DNA of 42,503 nt from Nitrospinae bacterium RIFCSPLOWO2_12_39_16. Its GTDB lineage: Bacteria; Nitrospinota; Nitrospinia; UBA9942. The notes under the pieces were generated by a model. That model made no database searches. It saw only the letters and a list, made by a program, of their open reading frames with translations, and was not told the DNA's origin. A program made the position numbers and the translations under genes. The stretch covers positions 1 to 42,503 of the forward strand of contig MHDO01000149.1 in the NCBI GenBank assembly GCA_001805005.1. The letters run 5' to 3'. The number at the start of each line of letters is the position of its first letter. Position 1 is the first letter of the stretch. Below are positions 1,561 through 36,985 of the stretch, one piece after another.

Positions 1561-1575
1561 AGGAGGATGATTAAA

Positions 1576-3702
1576 ATGAATAAAAAGCTAATATTAACCG
1601 CAGAGACACAGAGGCGCAGAGGAATATTTTTTGTTTTTAAGCCCATTAATGTTTTTCTCCGTGTCTCCGTGCCTCTGTGTTTTTTTCTTACATCTTGCTT
1701 CTTGTTGCCAACACTGTCATATGCACAGGAGCTTCCATATTCTGTCAGGAATATTACTGATGGAGGGCAGGTAGATTTTCATCCTGATTTTAGACCCGAT
1801 GGTAAGGAGCTCGTATTTGCATCCAGGAGTGAAATATCTAAAGACAATAAAGAGTTCTGGAATATCAGCCCCTATCATGTAAATTTATGGCTAATAGATT
1901 CTAATGGTAATAACAGGCGACCACTAACCTCTGGTAAAGTAATAGATTGTTATCCTTCCTTTACCCCTGATGGCGAGAAGATATTGTTTGTCTCAAACAG
2001 GGGAGGGCAGTGGGATATATGGTCTATAAAAACGGATGGCTCAAGCCTTACCCGTCTTACAGATAATCAGGATAAAGATTATTCTCCAAGGGCAACACAG
2101 GATGGAAAACATATTTTATTTTTCAGCACACCAACACATAGTGAAGCAGGTTATATTACAGAGAGTGTCTGGATTATGGATATGGATGGAAAAAATGCAA
2201 GGAGATTGACCTCCGGAGGCAAGGGTGATTGGTATCCATCTATGCATCCTGATGGAACAGAGATTATATTTGCGAGTATGAGACTTATCGGCGGGAGTCT
2301 CTGGACAATAGATATGGAGGGCAGAGATTACAAAAGGTTGACCTATGGGAAGGTATTGGAATTTTTCCCCAACTGGAGTCCTGACGGAACAAAAATCGCT
2401 TATATTTCAAGGAGGGAGCATGCATCCTTTGATACTGTAGGTGATACAAAAAATGACCCTCTTGAGATATGGGTTATGGATAGAGATGGGAGCAATAAAA
2501 GACAGTTAACAAAAAATATATCAGGAGGAATCTGGGATTCAAGATTTAACTTGAGAAAGCCATTAGACTTCATCAGTTATTATCATCTCTCATGGCACCC
2601 TGATGGCACAAAGCTCGCACTGACCACTTGGGAGAAGGAACAAAAGGGGAGTTACATAAGTATAATTGAATTTGATAAAGATACCCTAAATAGACTGCCT
2701 GTCTTGAATGAAGGGCCAGTTCTTCAATACACCCTGCTCGGAGAGAGGGAGCTTACTAAGGGGGAATGGGAGGATTTTGGTCCATCCTTCGGCCCTGATG
2801 GCAATGCGATAGTCTTTTCATCAAACAGAACAGGTAATTGGGATATCTGGAGTATAGGAGCGGATGGTGAAGGATTAAAACAAATAACAAATGAAACTGA
2901 TGATGATATTGCCCCTGTCTTCAGTCCTGATGGAAAGGAGATAGCATTTTTGAGGAGCCAGAAGCCAGAAGCCAGAAGCCAGAAGGATGAAACTGATTTT
3001 AAAAATCTTCAATCTTCAATCTTAAATCTTCAATATGATTTGTGGGTAATGAAGAGTGATGGGAGTGGTATGAGGAAGATTACAAAAAATATTCCTATTT
3101 TATCCTATCCTATATGGCACTCTGACGGTAAAGAGATTGCATTTGTATCAAAAGGAGATGAGGGGATTGGAATATGGAGATATGATGTTAATCGTCATAG
3201 TAGTAAGAAGGTCGCTATTATCTGGAATAGTGAACAAGAAACAGGAAGCAAGAAGCAAGAAGCAGGAAAAGGAAAATATTATCCATTTAATGAACTATTT
3301 CTTTACCGGATTGATTATAACAGGAAGGGTGATAAGCTCACATTTGAATCAAATCTATCAGGTAATGTGGAAATATGGGTAATGCATAGCGATGGAAGCA
3401 ATATGAGTAAGATTACAAGAGGCAATGAACCGCACTGGAATCCCGTTTTTAGTCCGGATGGAAAAATGATAGCTTATGCAACGGAGAAATTTGCCTCAAA
3501 TTTAGGACCTCCTTTCTGGCCTGCCTCTAATTATAATATCTGGCTGACAGATATAAATACAGGAAAAGAAGAAGCACTTACGGCTGAAGAGCAGACAGAT
3601 TGGAATCCTGCATGGAGTCCGGATGGAAAAAAAATCGCCTATGTCACTAACAGGTCAGGCGATTTTAAGCATAATAGTATATGGCTGTTGTATTTGAAAT
3701 AA
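1576..3702 (+). CDS. exported PD40/TolB-like double beta-propeller protein (subfamily A)
   Basis: AGGAGG 1561-1566 lies 9 nt before ATG 1576; ORF-track ATG 1567 abuts the SD and is less likely. Leader MNKKLILTAETQRRRG..VPLCFFLTSCFLLPTLSYA/QE has a charged then hydrophobic segment and an AxA-like site. PD40 blade motifs run throughout. Confidence 0.85.
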   Translation: MNKKLILTAETQRRRGIFFVFKPINVFLRVSVPLCFFLTSCFLLPTLSYAQELPYSVRNITDGGQVDFHPDFRPDGKELVFASRSEISKDNKEFWNISPYHVNLWLIDSNGNNRRPLTSGKVIDCYPSFTPDGEKILFVSNRGGQWDIWSIKTDGSSLTRLTDNQDKDYSPRATQDGKHILFFSTPTHSEAGYITESVWIMDMDGKNARRLTSGGKGDWYPSMHPDGTEIIFASMRLIGGSLWTIDMEGRDYKRLTYGKVLEFFPNWSPDGTKIAYISRREHASFDTVGDTKNDPLEIWVMDRDGSNKRQLTKNISGGIWDSRFNLRKPLDFISYYHLSWHPDGTKLALTTWEKEQKGSYISIIEFDKDTLNRLPVLNEGPVLQYTLLGERELTKGEWEDFGPSFGPDGNAIVFSSNRTGNWDIWSIGADGEGLKQITNETDDDIAPVFSPDGKEIAFLRSQKPEARSQKDETDFKNLQSSILNLQYDLWVMKSDGSGMRKITKNIPILSYPIWHSDGKEIAFVSKGDEGIGIWRYDVNRHSSKKVAIIWNSEQETGSKKQEAGKGKYYPFNELFLYRIDYNRKGDKLTFESNLSGNVEIWVMHSDGSNMSKITRGNEPHWNPVFSPDGKMIAYATEKFASNLGPPFWPASNYNIWLTDINTGKEEALTAEEQTDWNPAWSPDGKKIAYVTNRSGDFKHNSIWLLYLK
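1598..1707. repeat. family-2 leader palindrome (octamer arms) in PD40 gene 2
   Basis: Left arm CCGCAGAGACACAGAGGCGCAGAGG 1598-1622. Right arm TCTCCGTG TCTCCGTG CCTCTGTG 1656-1679 (the complementary octamer family). Then CTTGCTT CTTGTTG 1694-1707. Confidence 0.85.
2957..3034 (+). repeat. in-frame heptamer STR pair in PD40 gene 2: (GCCAGAA)x4 2957-2984, (AATCTTM)x4 3004-3034
   Basis: Read directly. Translates SQKPEARSQKDETDFKNLQSSILNLQ. Homologous position to 821-898. Confidence 0.9.
3234..3275 (+). repeat. in-frame heptamer STR (RCARGAA)x6 in PD40 gene 2
   Basis: ACAAGAA ACAGGAA GCAAGAA GCAAGAA GCAGGAA AAGGAAA. Translates EQETGSKKQEAGKGK. Confidence 0.85.
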
Positions 3703-3715
3703 GGGGGGATTTACC

Positions 3716-5965
3716 ATGAATAGAAAAATCAGAAGACAGAAGATAGAAGTCAGAAGTCAGACCTCTTGCCTCCGCAGGCTAAAGCCTACGGCTACTCATT
3801 GCTCATTGCTCATTGCTCATTGCTTCTTGTTACTCACACTGACACTGACACTTGCACTTAGCGATGTCTTTGCAGCATCAGAGGGAAGGCCTAATCACAT
3901 GTCGGAAGAGATATTGAAAACAAAGAAGGTTGTCGCAGTTCCCGAAGATGTTCAAGTTCCTTACACTGTCAGGAGGGTTACTGATGGCAGTTCTATTGAT
4001 TACCATCCTGAATTCAGCCCTGATGGAAAACAGATTGTGTTTATATCAAAAATAGATAATGTTGAGGCTAAGAAAAAAGGAGAGTTCTGGCACAAGACAC
4101 CTTATTATTTGAATCTATGGCTCATGGATTCGGATGGCAGGAATAAACGGCAATTAACATCCGGAGAATTTCAGGATTTTGCCCCAAAATGGACAGCAGA
4201 CGGGGAAAAGATATTTTTTGTCTCAAATCGCAGAAACGGCAGGTGGGATATATGGTCTGTAGATATAAATGGCTCAAACCTTGCCAGGATTACAGAGACT
4301 GAAGGAAATACAGGTTTATGGGAAAGGTCTCACTATCCTTTCCCTACACCTGATGGCAAAGGGATGGTTTTTATAATCTATAAAAAATCACATGGAAGTG
4401 TATGGTATAAGGATATGGAAAGCGGAAATATAAGGAGAATAACATCAGGAGGTTTTGGAGATGACTTTCCTATGGTTTCCCCTGATGGTAAAGAGATTGT
4501 CTTTAAAAGCACGAGACAGGGCAATGGAGATATATGGTCAATAGACAGCTCGGGGAAAAATTATAGGAGATTGACTTATGAGGATTATCCTGAGTTTTAT
4601 CCTGCATGGAGTCCGGATGGAACAAAGGTTTCTTATATTACAAACAAGGGAGGCGTCTTTGATGTGTGGCTCATGGATAGGGACGGCAGGCATAAAAAGA
4701 AATTGACAAAATATCTGTCAAAGGGGGCATGGGGATTAAGGTTTGATTATAATGACCTCACTGAGGCGGGATATTACCATGTTTCATGGCATCCTGATGG
4801 AACAAAGCTTGCTTTAACTACATGGGAGCCTGATAAAAAAGAGAGTTATTTGACAATGCTTGACTTTGGAAAGGATATTAATAAGGCGGCTGAGGAATTG
4901 CCCGAAGAAAAAGAAACCCTTCCTGAATATACTCTCATTGGAGAGAAAGAACTTACAGGCGGCGGAAATTATGATGATTTTGGTCCATCCTTCAGCCCTG
5001 ATGGTAAAACAATAATCTTTGCTTCCAATAGGAAGGGGAACTGGGATATCTTGAGCATAGGTGTTGATGGTGAAGGATTGCGGCAGATAACAAAAGATGC
5101 AGGTGATGAAGTTGCTCCAGTATATAGCCCTGATGGGAAGGAGATAGCATATCTTAAAGAAGCAAATCCTAAATCCGAAATCCTAAATCCTAAATATGAT
5201 ATCTGGGTAATGAATAGTAACGGGAGCGAGGCAAGGAAGGTTACGAATGGTATTGAGGTGATTTCCTATCCAGCATGGCATTCTGATGGTAAAGAGATTG
5301 CCTTTGTGGTAAAGGGAGATAGCGGACCAGAGATACGATTGCTTTCCCTTGACAAAAGGGGACAATCTCCTCAGGCGGTTGTTTCTATATGGGATACTGA
5401 AAAACCCAATCCTGTGATGTTTCCATTTACAAAGGAGGGAGAGAAAGAGGAATTTACCCCTCAGGAGATAGCAAAGATGAAGGAATTATTCCCGAATATA
5501 AAATTAGGGATGGGTGGATTAACTCCATTTACAAAGGGTGAAACGATTGATGTCCCTTATCCACTGAATGAATTTCTTTATAGAGTTGATTATAGTGCTA
5601 CAGGCGACAGAATTATATTTGAGTCTAATAAGACCGGTAATATTGATATATGGTCGGTAAGGAGGGATGGGACAGAATTGAACCGTATTACTAAAAAGGA
5701 TGGTCCTCATTTGAATCCTGTTTTCAGCCCTGATAATAAAAAGATTGCATATGCCCGCAGAAAATTAGATTTAAGCTCCTATAATGAAGTGAATTATAAT
5801 ATATGGATTGCTGATGCTGAAACAGGTGAAGAGATGCCGATTAATGGAGAGGAGCAGACAGACTGGAATCCTGCTTTCAGTCCTGATGGCAAAAAAATTG
5901 CCTATGTCACCAATCGCTCAGGGGAGTTTAAGCATTATAATATATGGATGCTGTATTTGAAATGA
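3716..5965 (+). CDS. exported PD40/TolB-like double beta-propeller protein (subfamily B)
   Basis: G-run 3703-3708 lies 7 nt before ATG 3716. Leader MNRKIRRQKIEVRSQ..HCSLLIAHCFLLLTLTLTLALSDVFA/AS. Subfamily-B signatures GEFWHKTPYYLNLWLMDSDG and LWERSHYPFPTPDGKGM. Same C-terminal ..NIWMLYLK*. Confidence 0.85.
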   Translation: MNRKIRRQKIEVRSQTSCLRRLKPTATHCSLLIAHCFLLLTLTLTLALSDVFAASEGRPNHMSEEILKTKKVVAVPEDVQVPYTVRRVTDGSSIDYHPEFSPDGKQIVFISKIDNVEAKKKGEFWHKTPYYLNLWLMDSDGRNKRQLTSGEFQDFAPKWTADGEKIFFVSNRRNGRWDIWSVDINGSNLARITETEGNTGLWERSHYPFPTPDGKGMVFIIYKKSHGSVWYKDMESGNIRRITSGGFGDDFPMVSPDGKEIVFKSTRQGNGDIWSIDSSGKNYRRLTYEDYPEFYPAWSPDGTKVSYITNKGGVFDVWLMDRDGRHKKKLTKYLSKGAWGLRFDYNDLTEAGYYHVSWHPDGTKLALTTWEPDKKESYLTMLDFGKDINKAAEELPEEKETLPEYTLIGEKELTGGGNYDDFGPSFSPDGKTIIFASNRKGNWDILSIGVDGEGLRQITKDAGDEVAPVYSPDGKEIAYLKEANPKSEILNPKYDIWVMNSNGSEARKVTNGIEVISYPAWHSDGKEIAFVVKGDSGPEIRLLSLDKRGQSPQAVVSIWDTEKPNPVMFPFTKEGEKEEFTPQEIAKMKELFPNIKLGMGGLTPFTKGETIDVPYPLNEFLYRVDYSATGDRIIFESNKTGNIDIWSVRRDGTELNRITKKDGPHLNPVFSPDNKKIAYARRKLDLSSYNEVNYNIWIADAETGEEMPINGEEQTDWNPAFSPDGKKIAYVTNRSGEFKHYNIWMLYLK
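3730..3860. repeat. family-1 leader cassette, copy in PD40 gene 3
   Basis: Purine arm CAGAAGA CAGAAGA TAGAAGT CAGAAGT 3730-3757. Core hairpin CCGCAGGC-TAAA-GCCTACGG 3772-3791. (CTCATTG)x4 3795-3822. CACTGA-type hexamers to 3860. Confidence 0.9.
5164..5195 (+). repeat. in-frame heptamer STR (AAATCCK)x4.5 in PD40 gene 3
   Basis: AAATCCT AAATCCG AAATCCT AAATCCT AAATA. Translates NPKSEILNPK. Same loop as 821-898. Confidence 0.9.
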
Positions 5966-5980
5966 GGGAGGTTGATTAAA

Positions 5981-8143
5981 ATGAACAAAAACCTAATATT
6001 AACCACAGAGACACAGAGGCGCAGAGGAAAAAACAACTTAAAGAAATCTCTGTGTCTCAGTGCCTCTGTGGCTTTTTCTTGCATCTTGCTTCTTGCATCT
6101 TGCTTCCTGTCACCGACACTGGCACTTGCACTGGAAGAGGAACTTCCATACTCCATCACAGATATTACATCTGGAGAGGCAGTAGATTTTTACCCTGAGT
6201 TCAGCCGTGATGGAAAACAGATTGTTTTCTCCTCTAAGCCATTGGACGGTAGTTATTTCACTGATATGCATCTGTGGATTATGGATGCCGATGGAAATAA
6301 CAGACGGCAGATAACAGATAAGAGTGCGATGTATCTTCAGCCTACCTTTACACCTGATGGAGAAAAGGTTGTTTTTATCTCCAATTTGGAAGATGGACTA
6401 TGGGATATATGGTCAATGAAAATTAACGGTTCAGGGCTTACCCGACTGACAAAGGACAACCAGAAAGAGTTTTTTCCGATTGTTACCTCTGATGGTAAAA
6501 ATGTGATTTTCATAGGAAGATATTTTGGAACGGATAGTGTATTTATTATGGATACTGATGGCAAAAATCTGAAAAGATTGACTTCCGGTGGAAATGGAGA
6601 TTCCTTTCCTGCGGTTTGTCAGGATGGAAAGGATATTATTTTTTCCACAACGAGGCTTGGTAATAGCAATCTCTGGACAATAGACAGAGAAGGGAAGATA
6701 TATAATCGTCTTACCTTTGAAGATACAATAGAGTTTTCACCATCCTGCAGCCCTGATGGAAAAAGGATTGCCTATGTTGCCATAGAGGGAGGGGCTAAGA
6801 CTTATAGCAAGGCACGGAAGGGATTTGAGTTTAAAGAGATATCCTATAGGGAAAGGTCATTTGATATGTGGTTGATGAACAAGGATGGAAGCGGCAGGAG
6901 GCAGATTGCAAGAAATATATTTGAGACGGGACCGAGTATGAGGTTGTTCAAGTCCGTAGATGTTATAGAAGGGATTAACTACTATCACATCTCATGGCAT
7001 CCTGATGGTAAAAAGATGATATTGAGCAGATGGAATAAGGACAAAGCGGGGAGTCGTATCAGTATCTTGTCATTAGATAATGAAGTTGTTGAAAAATTAC
7101 CAATCACCGAAACACCGCTTTCTGAGTATTCTCTTCTCAGTGAAAAAGACCTTACCGGTGGGGATTGGGATGACATCACCCCAAGTTTTGCCCCGGATGG
7201 CAAGGGTATAATATTTGCCTCTAACAGAAATGGCGGGTGGGATATATGGAGGCTTTGGATTGCGGATTGCGGATTGCGGATTGCGGATTGCAAATCAGAG
7301 TTTGATGATGCAAAGCTGGAACAGCTAACAAAAGGGGATGATGATGAGTTGGCTCCAGTATATAGTCCTGATGGCAAAAAGATAGCTTATTTACGAAATA
7401 CGAAAGACGAAATACTAAATACGAAATATGATATATGGTTAATGAAAACTGACGGGAGTAGTGCGAGGCAGGTTACAAATGGGATTTCTGTTCTTTCCTA
7501 CCCTGCATGGAAACCTGATGGGAAAGAGATTGTCTTTGTGTCTGAAGGTAATGAACAAGCCCCTGAAATATGGGGATATAATATCGCTGAGGGGAGTCTT
7601 AAAAATATTGCATCCATTAAGGACGCTTTACTTCTTGGCTCCAGATTAAATAAGAAAACTAATATTGAACTTATCAGTGACAGGCGAAATATAAATACTT
7701 CTAATCCGCTATCAATAGGTGCAGGTGGTATCTATCCATTTAATAAATTTCTTTATCGTATAAATTATAGTCCTCGCGGCGACAGAATTATATTTGAACT
7801 GGATATGAAAGATAGCATAGGTATATGGACTATTAATAGTGATGGTAATGGTCTTACTCCTGTTATGACAGAGGATTCTCTCTACTGGACGCCGGTCTTC
7901 AGCCCGGATGGCAGAAAAATAGCCTATTCAAAAAAGGCAGGTAAACAGTTTGCCCCGATATATTGGACGGATTACAACATCTGGATAGCGGATGTTGATA
8001 GCGGTGAGAAGATGATGATTAATGGGGAAGAGCAGATAGACTGGTTTCCATCATGGAGCCCTGATGGAAAGAAAATAGCTTATGTTACTAATCGTTCGGG
8101 AGATTTCAGCCGCTTTAATATATGGCTGTTGTATTTGAAATAA
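5981..8143 (+). CDS. exported PD40/TolB-like double beta-propeller protein (subfamily A)
   Basis: GGGAGG 5966-5971 lies 9 nt before ATG 5981; the ORF-track start 5972 is TTG. Leader MNKNLILTTETQRRRG..ASCFLSPTLALA/LEEE. PD40 blade motifs. Ends ..FNIWLLYLK*. Confidence 0.85.
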   Translation: MNKNLILTTETQRRRGKNNLKKSLCLSASVAFSCILLLASCFLSPTLALALEEELPYSITDITSGEAVDFYPEFSRDGKQIVFSSKPLDGSYFTDMHLWIMDADGNNRRQITDKSAMYLQPTFTPDGEKVVFISNLEDGLWDIWSMKINGSGLTRLTKDNQKEFFPIVTSDGKNVIFIGRYFGTDSVFIMDTDGKNLKRLTSGGNGDSFPAVCQDGKDIIFSTTRLGNSNLWTIDREGKIYNRLTFEDTIEFSPSCSPDGKRIAYVAIEGGAKTYSKARKGFEFKEISYRERSFDMWLMNKDGSGRRQIARNIFETGPSMRLFKSVDVIEGINYYHISWHPDGKKMILSRWNKDKAGSRISILSLDNEVVEKLPITETPLSEYSLLSEKDLTGGDWDDITPSFAPDGKGIIFASNRNGGWDIWRLWIADCGLRIADCKSEFDDAKLEQLTKGDDDELAPVYSPDGKKIAYLRNTKDEILNTKYDIWLMKTDGSSARQVTNGISVLSYPAWKPDGKEIVFVSEGNEQAPEIWGYNIAEGSLKNIASIKDALLLGSRLNKKTNIELISDRRNINTSNPLSIGAGGIYPFNKFLYRINYSPRGDRIIFELDMKDSIGIWTINSDGNGLTPVMTEDSLYWTPVFSPDGRKIAYSKKAGKQFAPIYWTDYNIWIADVDSGEKMMINGEEQIDWFPSWSPDGKKIAYVTNRSGDFSRFNIWLLYLK
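6003..6112. repeat. family-2 leader palindrome (octamer arms) + heptamers in PD40 gene 4
   Basis: CACAGAGA CACAGAGG CGCAGAGG 6004-6027. TCTCTGTG TCTCAGTG CCTCTGTG 6047-6070. CTTGCAT CTTGCTT CTTGCAT CTTGCTT CCTGTCA 6078-6112. Confidence 0.9.
7257..7291 (+). repeat. perfect (GGATTGC)x5 inside PD40 gene 4
   Basis: Five identical heptamers. Translates (R)LWIADCGLRIADC(K). Confidence 0.95.
7393..7427 (+). repeat. in-frame heptamer STR (ACKAAAK)x5 in PD40 gene 4
   Basis: ACGAAAT ACGAAAG ACGAAAT ACTAAAT ACGAAAT. Translates NTKDEILNTK. Same loop as 821-898. Confidence 0.9.
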
Positions 8144-8151
8144 TTAATGAT

Positions 8152-8227
8152 AGTTTCATTAGTTTTATTAGTTGGATTGGTTAAAAGCAATAAAACTAAT
8201 AAGACCAATGCAACCAATAAAACAAAT
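8152..8227. repeat. intergenic palindrome of 9-mers
   Basis: AGTTTCATT AGTTTTATT AGTTGGATT 8152-8178, facing AAAAGCAAT AAAACTAAT AAGACCAAT GCAACCAAT AAAACAAAT 8183-8227 (AATAAAACT is the reverse complement of AGTTTTATT). Confidence 0.85.
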
Positions 8228-8245
8228 TGAAGGGGAGAATTTACT

Positions 8246-10438
8246 ATGTATATTAAAAAACTGACACAGTCACTAACACTCACACTGTCATTATCACTAT
8301 TATTAATTCTTGCCGGTGAGGTCTTTGCGGACACGCAAAGTATTTCAGATATCCCTTATAATGTCATTAGAATTACTGATGGGAGTTCCAAAGATTATCA
8401 GCCTGAGTTCAGTCCTGATGGGAAGCAGATTGTATTTATTAAAGAAATAAGTAATAGTGAAGGCATAAAAAGTGGTGAATTCTGGCACAAGACACCATAT
8501 TACATGAACCTATGGCTCATGGATTCGGATGGTAAGAATAGGAGACAATTAACATCAGGAGAGGTGCAGGATTTTGCTCCAATGTTTACAACGGATGGGA
8601 AAAGTATCATTTTTGTATCAAATCGTAAACATGGTAATAGATGGGATATATGGTCAATTAATGTAGATGGCTCAAACCTTACCAGAATAACAGAAATAGA
8701 AAAGAATGAGCTATGGGAGAGAATATTTTATCCTTCACCTACACCTGATGGTAAAGGGATGCTTTTCGTAGTTTATCAAGAAGGTCACCCAAGTGTATGG
8801 TTAATGGACATGGAAAGTAGGGCTGTGAAAAGAATAACATCAGGAGGAACTGGAGACGATACTCCTGTGATGTCCCCTGATGGTAAAGATATCGTCTTTA
8901 AAACTTACAGACTCGGAGCTGGTGGTATATGGTCAATAGATAGGTCAGGAAAAAATTACAAGAGATTGACATACAAGTATTATAGGGAGTTTTACCCTGC
9001 ATGGAGTCCGAATGGAACAAAGATATCTTATGTTACTTATGAAAATGGCATTTTTGACCTATGGATAATGGATAGGGATGGCAGAAATAAAAAGAGGCTG
9101 ATAAAATCTATTCCACTGAAACCAAGTGATTTCTGGAGTGAGCATCCTATCGAATCTGGATATTATCGTGTCTCATGGCACCCTTATGGTACAAAGCTTG
9201 CCTTAACCCTTTGGGACCAAGATAAAAAAGAAAGCTATTTAACATTGTTTGATTTTGAAAAAGATATTACCATGGTATCGGAAAGCTTGTCTGATGAAAC
9301 CGAGTCGCTTAAAGATTATACGCTGATTGGTGAAAAAGATATCTCCGGCGATGGGAATTGGGATGATTTTGGTCCGTCTTTTAGTCCTGATGGAAAAACA
9401 ATACTATTTGCTTCTAATAGAAAAGGAAACTGGGGCATATGGAGTTTGGGAGCCGATGGCGAAGGATTAAAACAAATAACAAAAGGGAGCGGTGATGACA
9501 TTGCCCCTGTTTTTAGTCCTGATGGCAAAGAGATAGCTTTTTTGAAGAAGACAGAAGATAAGAAGTTAAGAAGTTTAGAAGATGAGAAACTGAAAAGCAC
9601 AACCTCTCAACCTCTCAACCTCTCAACTTCTGTTATTTCTACCTATGACCTCTGGATAATGAATAGTGATGGGAGTGTGGCGAGACAGGTTACTAAAGGT
9701 ATTTCAATTATATCCTATCCTGCATGGAATCCGAATGGGAAAGAGATTGCCTTTATTACAAAAGGTGATAAAGGTCATGAAATACAATTTATATCCCTTA
9801 ATAAAGATAGTGTGGGAGGTGTTTCTCAAGCTTACACTGTGAACCGACTTATCTCTATATGGGATATTGAAAATGATAATTCTGCAATCTCTCTATTCGA
9901 AAAAAACGAAGATTTTACTTCTAATAAAAAGTATAAAATAGCAAAGATGCAACATTTTTTACCAGAAGTGAAAAACCCTGCATTTATTTTATCAAGATTT
10001 ATAAAAGGAGAGGCGGTTACTTTATCCTATCCATTAAAAGAATTTCTTTATAAAGCCAGTTATAATACCTCCGGTGATAAGATTATATTTGAGTCCAATC
10101 GGACAGGGAACATAGATATATGGTCGGTAAAAAGGGATGGGACAGAACTGACACGAATTACGAAAGGGAATGGACCTCATTTGAATCCAGTTTTTAGCCC
10201 AGATAATAAAAAAATTGCCTTTGCCCATCGTAAAGAAATAGGGGTAAGCATTAGCAATACAACAAACTATAATATATGGATTGCCGATGTTCAAACAGAT
10301 GAGGAGATGATGATTAACGGTGAGGAGCAGACAGACTGGAATCCTGTATTTAGTCCTGATGGAAAAAAAATTGCCTATGTTACCAATCGTTCAGGAGATT
10401 TTAAGCACTATAACATATGGATGCTGTATTTGAAATAA
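8246..10438 (+). CDS. exported PD40/TolB-like double beta-propeller protein (subfamily B)
   Basis: AGGGGAG 8231-8237 upstream of ATG 8246. Classical signal peptide MYIKKLTQSLTLTLSLSLLLILAGEVFA/DT. GEFWHKTPYYMNLWLMDSDG signature. Ends ..NIWMLYLK*. Confidence 0.9.
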   Translation: MYIKKLTQSLTLTLSLSLLLILAGEVFADTQSISDIPYNVIRITDGSSKDYQPEFSPDGKQIVFIKEISNSEGIKSGEFWHKTPYYMNLWLMDSDGKNRRQLTSGEVQDFAPMFTTDGKSIIFVSNRKHGNRWDIWSINVDGSNLTRITEIEKNELWERIFYPSPTPDGKGMLFVVYQEGHPSVWLMDMESRAVKRITSGGTGDDTPVMSPDGKDIVFKTYRLGAGGIWSIDRSGKNYKRLTYKYYREFYPAWSPNGTKISYVTYENGIFDLWIMDRDGRNKKRLIKSIPLKPSDFWSEHPIESGYYRVSWHPYGTKLALTLWDQDKKESYLTLFDFEKDITMVSESLSDETESLKDYTLIGEKDISGDGNWDDFGPSFSPDGKTILFASNRKGNWGIWSLGADGEGLKQITKGSGDDIAPVFSPDGKEIAFLKKTEDKKLRSLEDEKLKSTTSQPLNLSTSVISTYDLWIMNSDGSVARQVTKGISIISYPAWNPNGKEIAFITKGDKGHEIQFISLNKDSVGGVSQAYTVNRLISIWDIENDNSAISLFEKNEDFTSNKKYKIAKMQHFLPEVKNPAFILSRFIKGEAVTLSYPLKEFLYKASYNTSGDKIIFESNRTGNIDIWSVKRDGTELTRITKGNGPHLNPVFSPDNKKIAFAHRKEIGVSISNTTNYNIWIADVQTDEEMMINGEEQTDWNPVFSPDGKKIAYVTNRSGDFKHYNIWMLYLK
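9546..9626 (+). repeat. in-frame STR pair in PD40 gene 5: AGAAG at period 7-8 x6 (9546-9592), (CCTCTCAA)x3 (9603-9626)
   Basis: Read directly. Translates ..KKTEDKKLRSLEDEKLKSTTSQPLNLST.. Same loop as 821-898. Confidence 0.85.
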
Positions 10439-10453
10439 ATGGGAGGTTTTACC

Positions 10454-12673
10454 ATGAACATAAAAATCAGAAGACAGAAGACAGAAGACAGAAAACAGAC
10501 CTCTTGCCTCCACAGGCTAAAGCCTGCGACTACTCATTGCTCATTGCTTTTTGCTTTTTGCTTTTTGCTCTTGCTTCTTGTCGGTAAGGTCTTTGCGGAC
10601 ACACAAAGTATTTCAGATATCTCTTATAATGTCATTAGAATTACAGACGGGAGTTCCATGGATTATAATCCTGAATTCAGCCCTGATGGAAAACAGATTG
10701 TGTTTATATCAAAAATAGATAATACTGAGGCTAAGAAAAAAGGAGAGTTTTGGCACAAGACACCATTTTATCTGAATCTATGGCTCATGGATTCGGATGG
10801 TAAGAACAGGAGACAATTAACATCAGGAGAGGTGCAGGATTTTGCTCCAAGGTTTACCCCTGACGGGAAAAAGGTTTTTTTTGTATCCAATCGAATGAAT
10901 AATAAAAGGGATGTATGGTCAATAGATATTGATGGCTCAAACCTTAAAAGGATTGCAGAGATAGAGGGGGATACAGAACATTGGAGGACAGTACAATATC
11001 CAGTTCCTACACCTGATGGTAAGGGATTGGTTTTAATACTCTATAAAAAAGAGTCTGTAAGTGGTGTATGGTTTATGGATATAGAAAGTGGAAAGACAAG
11101 GAGAATAACTTCAGGGGGAAATGGAGACTATTTTCCGGTAATGTCTCCTGATGGTAAAGAGATTGTTTTTGAAAGCATGAGACTGGGCAATTTGGGTAGT
11201 AGCGGAGATATTTGGTTAGTGGATACATCAGGAAAAAATTACAAGCGATTAACCTATGAGAATTATCCTGAGCTTTATCCTGCATGGAGTCCAGATGGAA
11301 CTAAGATATCATATGTTGCCAACAAAGAGGGTATCATTGATATATGGATAATGGATAGAGATGGAAAACACAGAAAGAGAGTAACAAAAAACATCTTAAA
11401 AGAGGTATGGGGGCGAAAGTGGCTGTCCATGTTTAATTATAACGACTTGTTTGATGCAGGATATTATCATGTATCATGGCATCCCGATGGAACAAAGCTT
11501 GCTTTAACTACATGGGAGCCTGATAAAAAAGAGAGCTATTTGACAATACTTGATTTTAAGGAAGATATTAGTAAAGTAATAGATAATTTACCTGAAGAAA
11601 AAAAGAACCTGTCTGATTATACTCTGATTGGGGAGAAAGACCTTACAGGTGGTGGAGACTGGGATGATTTTGGCCCATCTTTTAGCCCTGATGGAAAGAC
11701 AATAATCTTTGCTTCCAATAGAAAGGGGAACTGGAATATCTGGAGTATAGGAATTGATGGTGTAGGATTAAAACAGCTTACAAACGGGGATGATGATGAG
11801 TTAGCTCCAGTATATAGTCCTGATGGAAAAGAAATAGCCTTCCTTAAAAGCTCAAAGGAATTACTTTCAGCTTATGATATATGGGTAATGAAAAGTGATG
11901 GAAGTGGTGCGAGGCAGGTTACAGAGGGTTTTAAAGTTATATCCTACCCTGCTTGGAACCCGCAAAGTAACGAGATTGCCTTTGTATCAAAAGAGGATAA
12001 AGGTCCTGAGATACAATTAATCTCTCTTAGTAAGGTTGGTCAAGAGGTTGTTAATACTGTTAGTCGGGTTATTTCTATGTGGGATACTCAAAAGCCCAAT
12101 CCAGTTATGTTCCCATTTGCAAAAGAAGAGGAACAGAGAGAGTTCAATCCTCATAAAATAATGAAGATGAAAAAAATGGTTCAAGAGGAAAATAAAAATG
12201 AGAGAAAAGTTTGGAGCGAGGAATTGTTACTCTTAAAAAAAATCTTTGAGATTCCTTATCCATTGGAAGAGTTTCTTTATAAGATTGATTATAATACCAC
12301 AGGGGATAGACTTATATTTGAATCTAATCAAACAGGAAATATAAATATATGGTCGGTAAAAAGGGACGGAACAGGGCTGACCCATCTTACGAAAGGAGAT
12401 GGCACCTATCTAAATCCAGTTTTTAGCCCTAATAATTCAAAAGTTGCATATACCCGTAAGCTTAATAGAAGGTCAGAGTTTGATTACAACACCAGTGAAA
12501 GTTATGACATCTGGATTGCCGATGTTGATACTGGCGAGGAGATGAGGATTAACGATGAGGAGCAGACAGACTGGAATCCTGTCTTTAGTCCTGATGGAAA
12601 AAAAATTGCCTATGTTACTAATCGTTCAGGAGATTTTGAGCATTATAATATATGGCTGCTGTATTTAAAATGA
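10454..12673 (+). CDS. exported PD40/TolB-like double beta-propeller protein (subfamily B)
   Basis: GGGAGG 10441-10446 lies 7 nt before ATG 10454; ORF-track ATG 10439 directly abuts the upstream stop. Leader MNIKIRRQKTEDRKQ..LLLLLVGKVFA/DT. PD40 motifs. Ends ..NIWLLYLK*. Confidence 0.85.
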   Translation: MNIKIRRQKTEDRKQTSCLHRLKPATTHCSLLFAFCFLLLLLVGKVFADTQSISDISYNVIRITDGSSMDYNPEFSPDGKQIVFISKIDNTEAKKKGEFWHKTPFYLNLWLMDSDGKNRRQLTSGEVQDFAPRFTPDGKKVFFVSNRMNNKRDVWSIDIDGSNLKRIAEIEGDTEHWRTVQYPVPTPDGKGLVLILYKKESVSGVWFMDIESGKTRRITSGGNGDYFPVMSPDGKEIVFESMRLGNLGSSGDIWLVDTSGKNYKRLTYENYPELYPAWSPDGTKISYVANKEGIIDIWIMDRDGKHRKRVTKNILKEVWGRKWLSMFNYNDLFDAGYYHVSWHPDGTKLALTTWEPDKKESYLTILDFKEDISKVIDNLPEEKKNLSDYTLIGEKDLTGGGDWDDFGPSFSPDGKTIIFASNRKGNWNIWSIGIDGVGLKQLTNGDDDELAPVYSPDGKEIAFLKSSKELLSAYDIWVMKSDGSGARQVTEGFKVISYPAWNPQSNEIAFVSKEDKGPEIQLISLSKVGQEVVNTVSRVISMWDTQKPNPVMFPFAKEEEQREFNPHKIMKMKKMVQEENKNERKVWSEELLLLKKIFEIPYPLEEFLYKIDYNTTGDRLIFESNQTGNINIWSVKRDGTGLTHLTKGDGTYLNPVFSPNNSKVAYTRKLNRRSEFDYNTSESYDIWIADVDTGEEMRINDEEQTDWNPVFSPDGKKIAYVTNRSGDFEHYNIWLLYLK
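10468..10580. repeat. family-1 leader cassette, copy in PD40 gene 6
   Basis: (CAGAAGA)x3 CAGAAAA 10468-10495. Hairpin CAGGC-TAAA-GCCTG 10513-10526. (CTCATTG)x2 (CTTTTTG)x3 then CTCTTG CTTCTTG 10533-10580. Confidence 0.9.
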
Positions 12674-12738
12674 AGATTGAAGATTGAAGATTAACAGGTG
12701 GAAAATTTAGTATTCAATATTCAGTATTCAATAGTCAA
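12672..12738 (+). repeat. intergenic heptamer STRs (GAAGATT)x3 12672-12692 and (TATTCAR/TAGTCAA)x4 12711-12738
   Basis: Read directly. The first unit overlaps stop codon TGA 12671-12673. Confidence 0.9.
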
Positions 12739-12758
12739 TTTTTATGGAGGGATTTACC

Positions 12759-13715
12759 ATGAACATAAAAATCAGAAGACAGAAGACAGAAGACAGAAAA
12801 CAGACCTCTTGCCTCCACAGTCTAAAGCCTGCGGCTACTCATTGCTCATTGCTCATTGCTCATTGCTTCTTGTCACTCACACTTACACTGACACTATTAT
12901 TAGTTTTTGCTTCACTAGGGTGGACAGGAGGAGGAGGCTCTTATAATAAGAGGAGTGAGATGGTTCTTATACCCGAAGGTAAGTTTTTAATGGGGAGTAA
13001 AGAAGGTGATGGCAGAGTTGGCATTGATATGGGTGTAGATGAGCTTCCCCAGAGGGAGGTCTATCTTAAGTCATTTTACATAGATAAATATGAGGTTACT
13101 GTGGGGGCGTATAGAAAATTTGCAAAGGGACCAGGTGAAGAAGAGAGAAAATTTGCGAAGGGGACGGTGAATTCACCTTCAATTCTTCTTATCGGAGGGT
13201 TGACAGGTGAAAGGGCGAGAATGAAGAAGATGAGGGTTCCAATAGCAGATGATGATTTTCCTATGGCTGATGTGAGCTATATGGAGGCAGAGGCTTATTG
13301 TAAATCAATAGGGAAAAGACTTCCTACTGAAGAGGAGTGGGAGAAGGCAGCCAGGGGTAGTGATGGAAGAATCTGGCCATGGGGTAATAAGTTTGAGACA
13401 GGTATGGCAAACACCATAGAATCTAAAGAAAATGGGGCTGTGCAAGGGGGGAGTTTTACGGCCGATATAAGCCCTTATGATGTTTATGATATGGCAGGTA
13501 ATCTGATGGAGTGGACATCTTCATGGTATGAATCATATCCTGGGAGCAAGCTTGAAAGGCCTCAATTTGGTAAGGGGTATAGGGTCATGAAGGGCGGCAC
13601 CTGGAGTGCACCGTCAATACCTTTTTCCCGTGTAGCTCACAGGTACCCTGTCAAACCTACTGAAAATAATCATAGCCACCGTTATGGATTCAGATGTGCA
13701 AAAGATGCAGGGTAA
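12759..13715 (+). CDS. exported FGE-sulfatase-fold (SUMF1/PorK-like) domain protein, no FGE catalytic Cys pair
   Basis: GGAGGG 12746-12751 lies 7 nt before ATG 12759. Family hallmarks FYIDKYEVT, RLPTEEEWEKAARG, YDMAGNLMEWT, KGGTW, GFRCAKD. The segment equivalent to FGE GGSYMCHRSYCYRYR reads GGTWSAPSIPFSRVAHR, with no Cys. Confidence 0.85.
   Translation: MNIKIRRQKTEDRKQTSCLHSLKPAATHCSLLIAHCFLSLTLTLTLLLVFASLGWTGGGGSYNKRSEMVLIPEGKFLMGSKEGDGRVGIDMGVDELPQREVYLKSFYIDKYEVTVGAYRKFAKGPGEEERKFAKGTVNSPSILLIGGLTGERARMKKMRVPIADDDFPMADVSYMEAEAYCKSIGKRLPTEEEWEKAARGSDGRIWPWGNKFETGMANTIESKENGAVQGGSFTADISPYDVYDMAGNLMEWTSSWYESYPGSKLERPQFGKGYRVMKGGTWSAPSIPFSRVAHRYPVKPTENNHSHRYGFRCAKDAG
12773..12899. repeat. family-1 leader cassette, copy in FGE-fold gene 12759
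   Basis: (CAGAAGA)x3 CAGAAAA 12773-12800. Hairpin CCACAGTC-TAAA-GCCTGCGG 12815-12834. (CTCATTG)x4 12838-12865. CACTYA hexamers to 12899. Confidence 0.9.
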
Positions 13716-13719
13716 TAAT

Positions 13720-14763
13720 ATGTTGTCATTTGGTTATTCAAGTAAAGGAAATTATAAAAATTTGCCACAGAGGCACGGAGACACAGAGGAAATAAGGAGA
13801 AATGGTGAAAGGAAAAGAAATGGAGGAGCAAAAAAGTTATTTTTTATTGCTTTTTCTCCATCTCTCCATCTTCTCCCTTTCTCCTTAGTCTTTTTTGTCT
13901 TTCTCTGTGCCTCTGTGTCTCTGTGGCTTATTATGTCATTTCCCTTAGTGGTTACCGGTGATGAAGGAAAGGATGCAGAAGCACCTATAGAATTGGTCTT
14001 TGTTAAAGGGGGTTGTTTTAAAATGGGAGATATTGCTGGAGACGGAGAGAATGATGAAAGGCCTGTTCATGAGGTCTGTGTGGATGATTTTTATATCGGC
14101 AAGTATGAGGTTACAAGGGGTGAGTTTGAAAAATTTTTTAGTGAGACAGGTTATACTACTGATGCACAAAAAATGGGCTGTTTCGGGAAAGTGGGTTACA
14201 AATGGAGAAAGAGGATGGATTTTAGCTGGGAAAAGGTAGATTTTCCTCAGACAGATAGGCACCCGGCAGTCTGTATAAGCTATAATGATACACAAGAATT
14301 TATAAAATGGTTGAATAAAAAGCTTGTGGTGAGCGAAGCGAATCCATCTGATGGTAAATATCGTTTGCCCACAGAGGCTGAATGGGAATATGCAGCGAGG
14401 AGCGGCGGTAAGGCAGAAAAATGGGCAGGAACAAGTATAGAGTCGGAGCTTTCAGATTATGCATGGTATGATAAAAACTCTGGAGGTAAAACACATCCTG
14501 TAGGTCAGAAGAAACCTAATGTATTGGGTTTATACGATATGAGCGGCAATGTGTGGGAGTGGGTGGAGGATTGGTATGAGGTTGATTATTATGATAGAAG
14601 CCCTAAAAATAATCCTTTAAATACGAGCCCCAGCCATGCAAAGTCAATGCGCAGTGGTCCATGGAGTGTTCCTGTCCATGCTGTAAGGGTATTCTATCGC
14701 GGTAGTGATATACCGTATAGTATATGTGATGGACTTGGGTTTAGGATTGCAAAGACACCGTAG
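13720..14763 (+). CDS. FGE-sulfatase-fold domain protein, no FGE catalytic Cys pair
   Basis: FYIGKYEVT, YRLPTEAEWEYAARSGG, YDMSGNVWEWVEDWY, GFRIA. The start is uncertain: ATG 13720 follows the upstream stop, while ATG 13684 overlaps it. The first ~70 codons run through a nested palindrome (13764-13927). Confidence 0.8.
   Translation: MLSFGYSSKGNYKNLPQRHGDTEEIRRNGERKRNGGAKKLFFIAFSPSLHLLPFSLVFFVFLCASVSLWLIMSFPLVVTGDEGKDAEAPIELVFVKGGCFKMGDIAGDGENDERPVHEVCVDDFYIGKYEVTRGEFEKFFSETGYTTDAQKMGCFGKVGYKWRKRMDFSWEKVDFPQTDRHPAVCISYNDTQEFIKWLNKKLVVSEANPSDGKYRLPTEAEWEYAARSGGKAEKWAGTSIESELSDYAWYDKNSGGKTHPVGQKKPNVLGLYDMSGNVWEWVEDWYEVDYYDRSPKNNPLNTSPSHAKSMRSGPWSVPVHAVRVFYRGSDIPYSICDGLGFRIAKTP
13764..13927. 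repeat. nested (double) STR palindrome in the 5' region of FGE-fold gene 13720
   Basis: Outer arms GCCACAGAGGCACGGAGACACAGAGG 13764-13789 and CTCTGTGCCTCTGTGTCTCTGTGGC 13903-13927. Inner arms GGAGAAATGGTGAAAGGAAAAGAAATGGAGGAG 13796-13828 and CTCCATCTCTCCATCTTCTCCCTTTCTCC 13856-13884. Confidence 0.85.
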
Positions 14764-14768
14764 TTTAG

Positions 14769-15677
14769 ATGAACATGAAAATGAGAAGTCAGAAGTCAGA
14801 AGTCAGAAGTCAGGAGCAAGAAGCTCAAAGGGTTTGCTTTCAGTCTTCAGCTTTCAGCTTTCAGTTTCCATTTGTCTTTTGCCTCTATGTTTTTGCCTCT
14901 ATGCTCTTGCTTGTAGGCAGTGCAAATGCTAATGAATGTAAACTTATGGAGCCGAAAGTTCTGAAAAAATATATAGAAAATGGAACAATATACAATATGG
15001 TCGTAATTGATGTTCGTCAGGAGCATGATATAAAAATGAAGCGTATCGTGAGGGCTATTCCTGCCACTTTTGATAATATTAAAAAAGAATTGGTTAGCAG
15101 GGTGGGTGAGCTTATTGGTAAGAATGTAATTCTAATTGGGGAAGATACGAAGTCTGCAGAAAGTGTATGCAGCTATATGATAAAAAAAGATTACGGAATT
15201 CGTAATATCTTTGTCTTAAAAGGCGGGATGGAAAAGTGGGATGGACCTATTTTAGATGATATTTCAAATGTAGGATGTGAAGTGATTACCTCCCAGCAAC
15301 TTAAAAAGATAATGAAGTCAAATAGAAAGGTTGAGATAATTGATAAGCGTCCGTCAGAAGAGTATTATGAAGGACATATACCAGAGGCAAAATTAGAAGG
15401 TGGTTGGGGGAATCAGTTTCCAATAAATAAGTTCTCAATAAAAAACTTCTTACAGGAACTGGAGAGGCGTAAAAAATGGGAAAAAGAAAATGTTACTGTT
15501 GTATATGTCTATGATAACGAATGGCATGCCATGAGGGAGTGTAGGTATGAAAAATATTGGACATGGGGGTATAAAAATATTTATGTTCTTAGAGGCGGTA
15601 TGAAGGTATGGGAAGGAGAAGTAAAAAAAGATTATCTTGAAATATTGAAAAAGAGAGTTAAGGAGAAACTTAAATAG
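14769..15677 (+). CDS. exported tandem rhodanese-like domain protein, catalytic Cys absent in both domains
   Basis: Two rhodanese-homology units (..VVIDVRQEHD..VLKGGMEKWDG; ..VEIIDKRPSEEYYEGHIPEA..VLRGGMKVWEG). The active-site-loop position reads LIGEDTKSA and VYDNEWHA instead of CxxGxR[ST]. Leader MNMKMRSQKSEVRSQ..VFASMLLLVGSANA/NE. Confidence 0.75.
   Translation: MNMKMRSQKSEVRSQEQEAQRVCFQSSAFSFQFPFVFCLYVFASMLLLVGSANANECKLMEPKVLKKYIENGTIYNMVVIDVRQEHDIKMKRIVRAIPATFDNIKKELVSRVGELIGKNVILIGEDTKSAESVCSYMIKKDYGIRNIFVLKGGMEKWDGPILDDISNVGCEVITSQQLKKIMKSNRKVEIIDKRPSEEYYEGHIPEAKLEGGWGNQFPINKFSIKNFLQELERRKKWEKENVTVVYVYDNEWHAMRECRYEKYWTWGYKNIYVLRGGMKVWEGEVKKDYLEILKKRVKEKLK
14784..14903. repeat. STR leader of rhodanese gene 14769
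   Basis: (AGAAGTC)x4 AGGAGCA AGAAGCT 14784-14825. TCAG at period 7 x4 14838-14868. TTTTGCCTCTATG x2 14877-14903. Confidence 0.9.
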
Positions 15678-31530: not shown

Positions 31531-31544
31531 GAAAGGAGATGTTT

Positions 31545-32556: not shown

Positions 32557-32615
32557 TAGTGGCAGTTTAAGTTGAAAAATGCTCCCCCTAACACTGTCAC
32601 TGAAACTGACATTGT

Positions 32616-33017: not shown

Positions 33018-33020
33018 GTT

Positions 33021-33091
33021 ACAAGAAGAAAGATGTAAGAAGCAAGATACAAGATTTTTTCTTGTTTCTTGCCTCTGACCTCTTGCTTCTT
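33021..33091. repeat. intergenic heptamer STR palindrome between gspI and gspJ
   Basis: ACAAGAA GAAAGAT GTAAGAA GCAAGAT ACAAGAT 33021-33055, TTTTT, CTTGTTT CTTGCCT CTGACCT CTTGCTT 33061-33088. Core stem GCAAGATACAAG / CTTGTTTCTTGC is 11/12 complementary. Confidence 0.9.
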
Positions 33092-33778: not shown

Positions 33779-33782
33779 AAAG

Positions 33783-36971: not shown

Positions 36972-36985
36972 ACTAAACACTTTTT

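Follow-up and report, generated by a model that had tools for sequence, protein, structure and literature searches.

The class-1 leader: a start-of-gene module shared by unrelated neighbouring genes of a Nitrospinae PD40/FGE-sulfatase cluster

In the 42,503 nucleotides analysed here (contig MHDO01000149.1 of Nitrospinae bacterium RIFCSPLOWO2_12_39_16, assembly GCA_001805005.1; hereafter the window), head-to-tail PD40 genes are accompanied by an FGE-sulfatase gene, FGE_a, and a rhodanese gene. Neighbouring genes of this cluster that encode unrelated proteins begin with a shared start-of-gene module, roughly 140 bases long and nearly the same letter for letter. The module, which we call the class-1 leader, comprises a ribosome-binding site and about 46 codons and is composed of three tandem arrays and one unique spacer (12746-12895 for FGE_a). 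We regard it as likely that this leader, a probable export leader derived from heptamer arrays, is a separable module and a recombination substrate within the tandem cluster.

Leader copies and their predicted function

Aligned without gaps from their start codons, the leaders of FGE_a (12759-12853) and PD40 gene 6 (10454-10548) differ at only 2 of 95 positions, 12821 (T/G) and 12834 (G/A), which is the count that an initial annotation of this DNA had reported from a hand alignment. The same annotation had paired the 3' half of the FGE_a leader with PD40 gene 3 at 2 mismatches in 62 bases; the closeness holds, but the coordinates given were one base off. The ATG-to-ATG offset between FGE_a and gene 3 is 9043, so that 12834 pairs with 3791 rather than with 3790, and an ungapped comparison of 12834 with 3790 yields 54 mismatches in 62. 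In the correct register, leader bases 75-137 of the two genes differ at 2 positions. Where FGE_a and gene 3 have CATTGCT, gene 6 indeed carries three TTTTTGC units (10548-10572). The Shine-Dalgarno (SD) sequence and 7-nucleotide spacer, described earlier as conserved, are alike without being identical: they read GGAGGGATTTACC before FGE_a, GGGAGGTTTTACC before gene 6 (3 of 13 positions different from FGE_a) and GGGGGGATTTACC before gene 3 (1 of 13). The start conserved in all leader copies is the ATG at 12759 and not the one at 12744.

The similarity between the FGE_a and PD40 leaders stops at 12895, the end of the (CACTGA)n array, and ungapped identity past this base is at chance level. The mature proteins behind the leaders are unrelated according to Pfam (PD40, PF07676, versus FGE-sulfatase, PF03781), as had been claimed; plain duplication, which would carry the identity on into the mature regions, was checked and does not account for the copies. 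Nor is the match a chance one, since the 16-mer leader core CAGACCTCTTGCCTCC has three exact occurrences in the window, against an expectation of 0.31 hits even at up to 3 mismatches. No antisense copy of the leader is present in the window. The unique spacer (Table 1) marks the leader copies as being of common descent.

Table 1. Coordinates of the class-1 leader of FGE_a, of other leaders and of associated features in the window (arrows mark candidate cleavage sites; TRF, Tandem Repeats Finder)
Feature	Position	Strand	Basis
SD GGAGGG and 7-nucleotide spacer ATTTACC of FGE_a	12746..12758	+	Direct reading; same arrangement before every leader copy
FGE_a gene, 318 residues, PF03781 FGE-sulfatase	12759..13715	+	Open reading frame list, Pfam
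5' part of FGE_a leader (MNIKIRRQKTEDRKQTSCLHSLKPA), putative gene-conversion tract with gene 6	12759..12831	+	Mismatch counts
(CAGAAGA) x4.6 array; encodes charged n-region RRQKTEDRKQ	12773..12804	+	TRF, translation
Unique non-repeated leader spacer (CCTCTTGCCTCCACAGTCTAAAGCCTGCGGCTA)	12805..12837	+	Core exact three times in the window; core-pattern search
(CTCATTG/CATTGCT) x4.3 array; encodes hydrophobic stretch HCSLLIAHCF	12838..12867	+	TRF, translation
(CACTSA) x3.7 hexamer array; encodes LTLTLTL; similarity to PD40 leaders ends at its last base	12874..12895	+	TRF
FGE-specific leader end (LLLVFASLGWTGGGGSYNKRS); candidate signal-peptidase sites VFA↓S, GW(A/T)↓G	12896..12953	+	Orthologous in L014, P0003
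SD and leader of PD40 gene 6	10441..10580	+	5' 95 nucleotides nearly identical to FGE_a
SD and leader of PD40 gene 3; class 1, consensus-type 3' half, ending VFA↓ASEG	3703..3870	+	
Intergenic insertion between gene 6 and FGE_a; imperfectly inverted heptamer pair (TGAAGAT)3.1 and (TATTCAA)4.1	12674..12743	+	TRF
Rhodanese gene start; first leader sub-module only (MNMKMRSQKSEVRSQ: ATGAAYATRAAAAT, then (CAGAAGT)n)	14769..14823	+	TRF
Class-2 leader on PD40 gene 2 (MIKMNKKLILTAETQRRRG...RVSVPLCFF)	1567..1700	+	Inverted octamer arrays, intra-coding hairpin z=-6.3
Class-2 leader on PD40 gene 4; also on the FGE_a ortholog of L011/P0008	5972..6110	+	z=-5.9

In its architecture the class-1 leader is probably a long Sec-type signal peptide, possibly a signal anchor. 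Residues 1-23 form a positive n-region as in Sec signals (net charge +5 in FGE_a, +6 in gene 6 and +8 in gene 3), and the uncharged hydrophobic run that follows, 21-37 residues with a best 11-residue Kyte-Doolittle mean of 2.4-3.3, is in keeping with a Sec core; a run of this length could also be a membrane anchor. Clear small-x-small sites are found in gene 3 (VFA↓ASEG) and gene 6 (VFA↓DTQS), and in FGE_a the candidate site is ambiguous, either VFA↓SLG or, in its orthologs, GW(A/T)↓GGG. The Pfam domain of FGE_a begins at residue 66. In more remote FGE homologs (54-60% identity) an ordinary short signal peptide abuts the same domain start, EMVLIPEG, which argues that the leader is an N-terminal export or anchor segment outside the fold. 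A twin-arginine translocation (Tat) signal was considered and rejected: the RR pair, residues 6-7, precedes QKTEDRKQ, some 20 residues separate it from the hydrophobic core, and it does not fit S/T-R-R-x-F-L-K. The class-1 leader peptides match no Pfam-A or NCBIfam family, including any signal or sorting model (hmmscan, E<=10). A protein database search with the 60-residue leader alone returned one match, the 103-residue fragment P0001, the low-complexity query evidently being missed by the word index.

In its 3' part the gene 6 leader has diverged and consists of the array (CATTGCT)2(TTTTGCT)3 with CTCTTGCTTCTTG behind it. The start of the rhodanese gene is 87.5% identical to the leader over 40 nucleotides. 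The intergenic insertion before FGE_a forms a weak hairpin (z=-2.5), and occurs also upstream of FGE_a in contig L012 and is absent in L003 (both related contigs are introduced below).

Leader class, orthology and hybrid leaders

An exact-pattern scan with the leader core identified one GTDB-representative genome, Nitrospinae bacterium RIFCSPHIGHO2_02_FULL_39_82 (two copies on one contig, L001/L002), and six metagenome contigs (L003-L008). A search with the FGE protein, independent of the leader, retrieved orthologs at 76-88% identity, whose contigs are L011-L014; the orthology comparison covers 12 related contigs. All of them represent the same cluster, with a giant repeat-plus-PD40 protein, head-to-tail PD40 genes, FGE genes and rhodanese genes. 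In DNA sequence their gene bodies share about 75-90% identity with the window, and BLAST with the leader gives about two dozen copies. The core pattern was found only at this locus in the genome and metagenome collections searched, and a genome-wide sorting signal is unlikely, given that the pattern lies on a single contig of the representative genome.

Two classes of leader occur in the cluster. The class-2 leader (MNKNLILTTETQRRRG...SVPLC; 1595-1685, 6000-6103 and 13775-13925) consists of inverted octamer arrays that fold as hairpins (z=-5.9 to -7.3), and in the window is shared by PD40 genes 2 and 4 and partly by two FGE genes.

Leader class does not follow orthology. Orthologs of FGE_a bear the class-1 leader in the window, L003, L005, L012 and L014, but the ortholog P0008/L011 bears a class-2 leader, MNKNLILTTETQRRRGKNNLKKSLCLSASVAFSC, which in the window is found on PD40 gene 4; P0007 has the first class-1 sub-module only, and P0009 a short unrelated leader. 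In L012, the closest relative, whose synteny is full, class 2 heads each ortholog of genes 2, 3 and 4, with proteins that are 87-91% identical to those of the window (87.5% for gene 3), whereas gene 3 of the window carries class 1. The first 60 nucleotides of these three class-2 leaders are identical at 59-60 of 60 positions, on PD40 paralogs whose bodies share only 42-47% of their residues. Conversely, the gene 4 ortholog of L004/L007 has class 1 and gene 4 of the window class 2. Class 1 also heads the cluster's giant first gene in L006 and L008, but not in L003, and the rhodanese orthologs of L011/L012 contain a class-2 sub-module, where the window rhodanese has the first class-1 sub-module only. 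Class and orthology thus disagree in at least five groups (FGE_a, genes 2, 3 and 4, and the rhodanese Rhod_a), as expected under gene conversion. A pure clustering of leader copies by genome, which would have spoken for concerted evolution alone, was considered and rejected, because gene 3 orthologs share TEVRSQ across genomes; vertical retention and exchange therefore both occur.

Several relatives contain other in-frame inserted repeats in coding regions or leaders (L001 2330-2400, coding regions of L001/L008, L005 7030-7055, the gene 3 leader of L003), among them a palindromic element reading ...ELALAFESGSKLPHSK, and the FGE leader of L005 has a 24-nucleotide insert read as CPERSRRV. Upstream of the gene 3 ortholog in L011 (5545-5735), a (GCAATGA)n array is the reverse complement of the leader (CATTGCT)n about 100 nucleotides downstream, the two forming a long-range inverted repeat that brackets the ribosome-binding site and the start codon.

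The gene content between leaders varies as well. FGE_a is preceded by gene 6 in the window, by gene 4 in L003, L011 and L012, and in L005 and L014 by gene X; in L004/L007 the gene that comes after X is a PD40 gene headed by a class-1 leader. Gene X is a small unrelated nucleotidyltransferase-like gene of 157-158 residues with a weak Lnu(A)-like match only (L004, reverse complement, 5843-6316; L005 6526-6999; L014 586-1059). Other small unrelated genes are inserted in the cluster, at places that differ between relatives, namely a 205-residue Uma2 gene (PF05685; L012 12985-13602) and a similar-looking open reading frame of 176 residues (L002 357-887).

Gene X marks one side of a hybrid FGE leader in L014. 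The upstream 100 nucleotides and leader nucleotides 1-74 of L014 match the PD40 leader adjacent to gene X in L004/L007 (6 mismatches in 100 and 2 in 74). Nucleotides 75-176 match FGE_a of the window instead, including FGE-specific sequence that is absent from the PD40 leader, with 1 mismatch in 63 and 1 in the 39 bases of the FGE-specific end when counted by part (a count of 1 in 102 is given for the whole). The L014 leader is thus a clean hybrid. A crossover between two directly repeated leaders in which the intervening gene or genes were lost would give such a product, a mechanism that we infer. Taken with the discordance between leader type and orthology and the variable gene content between leaders, the hybrid supports the proposal of the initial annotation that recombination exchanges the leader irrespective of the gene behind it, and it extends this proposal beyond the genes first considered.

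A second hybrid boundary lies in the FGE_a leader of the window. With all copies aligned, its nucleotides 1-74 differ from gene 6 at 1 position and from each of the other copies at 5-12, and among the aligned copies the CAC codon at 12816-12818 is confined to the lineages of gene 6 and of FGE in the window. The informative sites change over from gene-6-like to gene-3-like between leader nucleotides 73 and 76 (12831-12834). The boundary is real, because the FGE leaders of the window and L014 differ at 8 of 74 positions in the 5' part versus 1 of 102 downstream (Fisher p=0.0045). The 5' part, whose history differs from that of the 3' part, is most simply explained as a short, recent conversion tract between the adjacent gene 6 and FGE_a leaders.

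The initial annotation had read the whole FGE_a leader as a mosaic of two PD40 copies. Of this reading the first half stands, since bases 1-73 are specifically gene-6-like; the derivation of bases 75-137 from gene 3 does not. These bases have 2 mismatches to gene 3 versus 1-3 to copies in other genomes, and run unbroken into an FGE-specific stretch with orthologous counterparts in L014 and P0003, the latter having the same peptide, HCFLSLTLTLTLLLVFASLGWTGGG. This continuity indicates that they are the FGE gene's own ancestral or consensus sequence. Gene 3 has kept the consensus 3' half as well, and the 3' half of gene 6 is derived and still polymorphic in the population. The leader is therefore most simply described by one exchange with gene 6 superimposed on an older FGE leader. 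An extension of the conversion tract upstream, into the 3' ends of the preceding genes, was considered and rejected: genes 5 and 6 are 92% identical over the last 120 nucleotides, similar to the 90% between genes 3 and 5, and the SD and spacer of gene 6 and FGE_a differ, as noted above.

A mechanism may be outlined as follows. The purine-rich (CAGAAGA)n array gives the charged part of the leader, and the T-rich (CATTGCT)n and (CACTGA)n arrays its hydrophobic part; if the leader is removed or retained in the membrane, the copies would be interchangeable among these genes. They lie 2-9 kb apart as direct repeats on neighbouring head-to-tail genes, and homologous recombination between them would therefore give short-tract gene conversion, unequal crossover and deletion. 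Such events would move leader segments between genes, make hybrid leaders and change the number of PD40 genes. Bases ~1-73 of the FGE_a and gene 6 leaders would have been homogenised recently, the rest of the FGE_a leader being its own older sequence. The hallmarks of gene conversion are seen here: an island of near-identity with unrelated flanks, discordance between segment and gene, and hybrids with definable breakpoints.

Contrary evidence and alternative explanations

Several observations weigh against this interpretation. The evidence for a specific conversion between gene 6 and FGE_a comes from few diagnostic sites; the shared GCG codon is found also in gene 3 of L011, and AAAACAG also in the FGE leader of L012 and in L006. 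Instead of real recombinants, the hybrids L007 and P0001 could be chimeras of metagenome assembly. Because a leader pattern led to most of the related loci, the sample is biased towards conserved copies. Export and cleavage are predictions from the architecture of the sequence, the 23-residue n-region is unusually long for a signal peptide, and the FGE cleavage site is ambiguous. A further point is the conservation of silent sites: retained class-1 leaders differ between genomes at 3-9% of third positions, the gene bodies at 25-37%. Within-genome conversion alone can't slow divergence between genomes. Leader changes follow no codon-position pattern, conservation extending to all three positions, and synonymous changes do not outnumber non-synonymous ones. 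The 3' ends of the adjacent PD40 genes evolve normally: their third positions have diverged far more than the other two. The contrast is weak in the closest pair free of ascertainment bias, FGE of the window and of L012, where third positions differ by 7.9% in the leader versus 11.8% in the body. The silent-site excess would reflect either a function of the DNA or RNA sequence itself or leader exchange between co-occurring lineages. P0001 has the exact 64-residue leader of the window on a different FGE allele (bodies 88% identical), and L007 is a hybrid at an array, although either may be a chimeric assembly.

These silent sites count in favour of the best of the alternatives, which we nevertheless consider unlikely: that the leader is a translated nucleotide-level element, either a regulator or antisense/small RNA target that co-controls the cluster, or a selected recombination promoter like the flanks of antigenic-variation cassettes. 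The low third-position divergence without a codon-position pattern, the normal evolution of the neighbouring PD40 3' ends, the occurrence of one leader on functionally linked and structurally unrelated genes, and the identical leader on the two FGE bodies of P0001 and the window would all suit such an element. The leader has, however, no RNA structure; it folds worse overall than shuffled sequence (z=+1.66 for 12740-12905; +0.95, +2.16 and -0.56 for the class-1 cores). No Rfam family reaches the gathering threshold in the whole window, the only match near the leader being a sub-threshold chance one, and the leader is not repeated antisense in the window. Folding of the translation-initiation region (-20..+40) of leader genes, at -2.8 to -5.7 kcal/mol, is inside the range of the other genes, and a promoter and terminator scan of 12400-13000 gave nothing over the shuffle expectation. 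The leader is moreover dispensable, since orthologs carry other leaders, and the unbiased comparison with L012 leaves leader and body with similar third-position divergence. If the silent-site excess is real, it would point to an unrecognised nucleotide-level role of the 5' coding region in a cluster of probably secreted proteins.

It is very unlikely that no exchange took place at all, and that tandem duplication, a single acquisition of the leader by FGE and purifying selection suffice, the mosaic being uneven divergence. The FGE_a leader is old, being present in orthologs at 82-88% identity (L003, L005, L012, L014), its gene-3-like half is the consensus state, and the tract shared with gene 6 rests on the few sites mentioned, all of which would agree with such a history. 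It fails on the discordance of leader class with orthology in at least five groups, the three near-identical class-2 leaders on distant paralogs in L012 and the breakpoint of the L014 hybrid (p=0.0045), and also on the leader changes, which are mostly non-synonymous, unlike those left by purifying selection on a peptide.

An assembler may also have jumped between repeated leaders, such that the FGE gene in reality lacks this leader or its mosaic structure. The leaders are repeats of 95-137 nucleotides within metagenome-derived sequence, and L007 resembles such a join at a tandem array, being 100% identical to the window from 9540 on and about 72% before; its break against window 8000-11204 falls at the (AAGAAGAT)n array at 9545-9588, and L007 is either a real recombinant of co-occurring strains or an assembly chimera. 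For the window itself an artefact is highly improbable. The initial annotation had named a chimera as the finding to be feared, and independent assemblies reproduce the region from gene 6 through the spacer to FGE_a: L009 (ENA, MEGAHIT k141) matches 9744-13865 at 99.85% with 6 substitutions and zero gaps, and L010 (JGI) matches 9744-13802 at 99.95% with 2 substitutions and zero gaps. Neither differs from the window inside the FGE leader, and both encode the exact FGE protein. The layout is thus identical in three assemblies, and six further contigs have FGE orthologs that also begin with this leader. The gene 6 leader holds two of the 6 L009 substitutions over 4.1 kb (10550 T/A and 10581 T/C), both in its 3' half, which is for this reason taken as its fast-changing part. 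L007 has the same TATTGCT intermediate unit, and the change from CATTGCT to TTTTGCT seems to be spreading unit by unit through the gene 6 array.

Phase variation, in which heptamer arrays in the first codons would slip, shift the reading frame and switch genes on and off, is equally improbable. Phase variation has a known signature in the enrichment of simple repeats near N-termini (PMC4692102, citing Lin and Kussell), and the arrays here lie in the 5' coding region of genes for probably secreted proteins, with a unit length of 7 that is not a multiple of 3 and starts at codons 5 and 27. Yet the copy number and frame of (CAGAAGA) and (CATTGCT) are constant between the window, L009 and L010 and throughout nearly all of some two dozen copies; where lengths do vary, the rearrangement stays in frame, no frameshifted allele occurs among the assembled copies, and 4.3-4.6 units are short for slippage. 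A dedicated mobile cassette (integron, shufflon, invertible-promoter type or diversity-generating retroelement) has least of all in its favour: although one module sits on unrelated genes and repeat arrays mark its junctions, there is no recombinase, integrase or reverse transcriptase in the 20 Pfam-scanned open reading frames or other translations of the 42.5-kb window, the breakpoints vary (nucleotides 73-76 in the window, between 60 and 137 in L014, other positions in L005, L006 and L012), conserved flanking inverted repeats are lacking and the copies are confined to one locus.

Tandem arrays of the window and comparison with known systems

The arrays of the class-1 leader are part of a wider population. 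TRF finds 46 short tandem arrays in the window, mostly with 7-nucleotide units, some with 6, 8 or 9, and about 4-5 units each. With a score >=40 as cut-off, TRF counts 34 non-overlapping arrays, of which 26 repeat with a period of 7 or 14, compared with 0-4 arrays in ten dinucleotide shuffles. Among the 46, 38 lie in genes and 27 of these within the first 80 codons, a region that makes up 17% of the sequence; 11 are elsewhere in genes, mostly in one PD40 inter-domain loop, and 8 are intergenic. Examples are 817-898, 3730-3852, 14784-14910, 21016-21103, 27599-27654, 33022-33091 and 37865-37899, and among the recurring unit families are CAGAAGN, CAAGAWG/TCTTGCN, ACTGAC and CACAGAGG. Purine-rich arrays are translated into segments rich in K/R/E/Q, T-rich arrays into segments rich in L/F/C/S. 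Many are imperfect inverted pairs that fold as strong hairpins, as in the class-2 leaders (z=-5.9 to -7.3), the leaders of the methyltransferase and nuclease-like genes and the spacer before GspJ; the class-1 leader has no such hairpin. The leaders of orthologs differ largely by the arrays they contain, and the arrays therefore appear to be the raw material of leaders.

The PD40 paralogs carry, in the same inter-domain loop, a different array pair each (817-898, 2956-3034, 5164-5195, 7257-7428 and 9545-9631). The pair of gene 5 (KKTEDKKLRSLEDEK...TTSQPLNLSTS) recurs in the gene 2 ortholog of L001, so that loop segments, too, seem to move between paralogs. Directly downstream of the leader genes, 30313-41480 holds a set resembling type II secretion and type IV pilus systems (GspF-, pseudopilin-, GspK-, PilM/N-, secretin- and ATPase-like), several of whose genes also begin with heptamer arrays. 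All open reading frames of the window taken as genes are on the + strand; the GC content is about 39% and the GC skew strongly positive throughout (0.13-0.38).

A more far-reaching idea, which we offer tentatively and hold to be rather doubtful, is that of a bacterial "secretory cassette". Heptamer and octamer arrays would create charged-then-hydrophobic N-termini from scratch, and the resulting modules would be kept similar in DNA sequence and would travel between neighbouring genes and between co-occurring lineages, either as a shared nucleotide-level control or recombination element or as the only islands of identity left. If so, export signals would be supplied to, and swapped among, unrelated proteins of one extracellular pathway. 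The locus itself offers a concrete bacterial case, reproduced in independent assemblies, of a probable signal-peptide-coding module that is a separable unit, sits on unrelated folds, is swapped wholesale between close relatives and would mediate gene gain and loss in a tandem array. It also shows a possible origin for such modules, arrays of 7-8 nucleotide units yielding in-frame charged and hydrophobic segments of about the right lengths. As the organisms are uncultivated bacteria labelled Nitrospinae from groundwater-type metagenomes, this interest is evolutionary and mechanistic rather than applied.

Concerted evolution of the 5' ends of paralogous secreted-protein genes and conserved signal "cassettes" are phenomena of a known kind; less familiar are the spread to non-homologous neighbours and the origin of a leader in arrays. 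In the babA/babB genes and the Hop family of Helicobacter pylori, 5' signal-peptide and 3' ends evolve concertedly by gene conversion. There as here the ends of secreted-protein paralogs are near-identical while the middles diverge, and chimeras would arise by RecA-type conversion between copies. Whereas the Hop partners are homologous and their loci dispersed, the class-1 leader is found also on non-homologous folds (FGE-sulfatase and, in part, rhodanese) in one head-to-tail array, is made of heptamer arrays, and is one of two leader classes that replace each other.

The vsp, vlp and vsa lipoprotein loci of Mycoplasma have a highly conserved 5' region and signal peptide before variable bodies. 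They share with the present cluster the clustering of genes and a near-identical module of 5' untranslated and signal-peptide sequence in front of divergent, often repeat-rich bodies. They differ in their site-specific inversion or promoter-linked repeats, their on/off switching and their single expression site or dedicated recombinase; in the window each gene has its own SD sequence and ATG, there is no recombinase among the open reading frames examined and no switching was seen. In the "secretory cassette" of frog skin peptides and the signal sequences of cone-snail toxins, the conservation of a single signal or prepro module extends even to its silent sites. One module likewise precedes mature products of very different structure; the frog and cone-snail cassettes, however, are eukaryotic, exon-based and joined to hypermutating mature peptides, whereas the leader described here is bacterial and intron-free and precedes ordinary conserved folds.

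For the arrays themselves there are further parallels. Dispersed heptanucleotide arrays are known as the short tandemly repeated repetitive (STRR) sequences of cyanobacteria and as GGGNATC in Xanthomonas and Nostoc (PMC4692102), and TAACTGA repeats are known from Beggiatoaceae (PMC4679880). The arrays of the window resemble these in being many, short and scattered, with 7-nucleotide units, typically about 4 per array, and a few recurring unit families. The described families prefer non-coding sequence, unlike the present arrays, most of which lie in genes and 27 of which fall within the first 80 codons, encoding parts of leaders. Tandem repeats in Borg elements, which are archaeal and extrachromosomal, create new disordered protein regions (PMC9879509). 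The two cases are alike in that recently formed tandem repeats within reading frames add peptide segments at permissive positions, and differ in that the units here, of 7 or 8 nucleotides, are read in all three frames and their product is a charged-then-hydrophobic leader.

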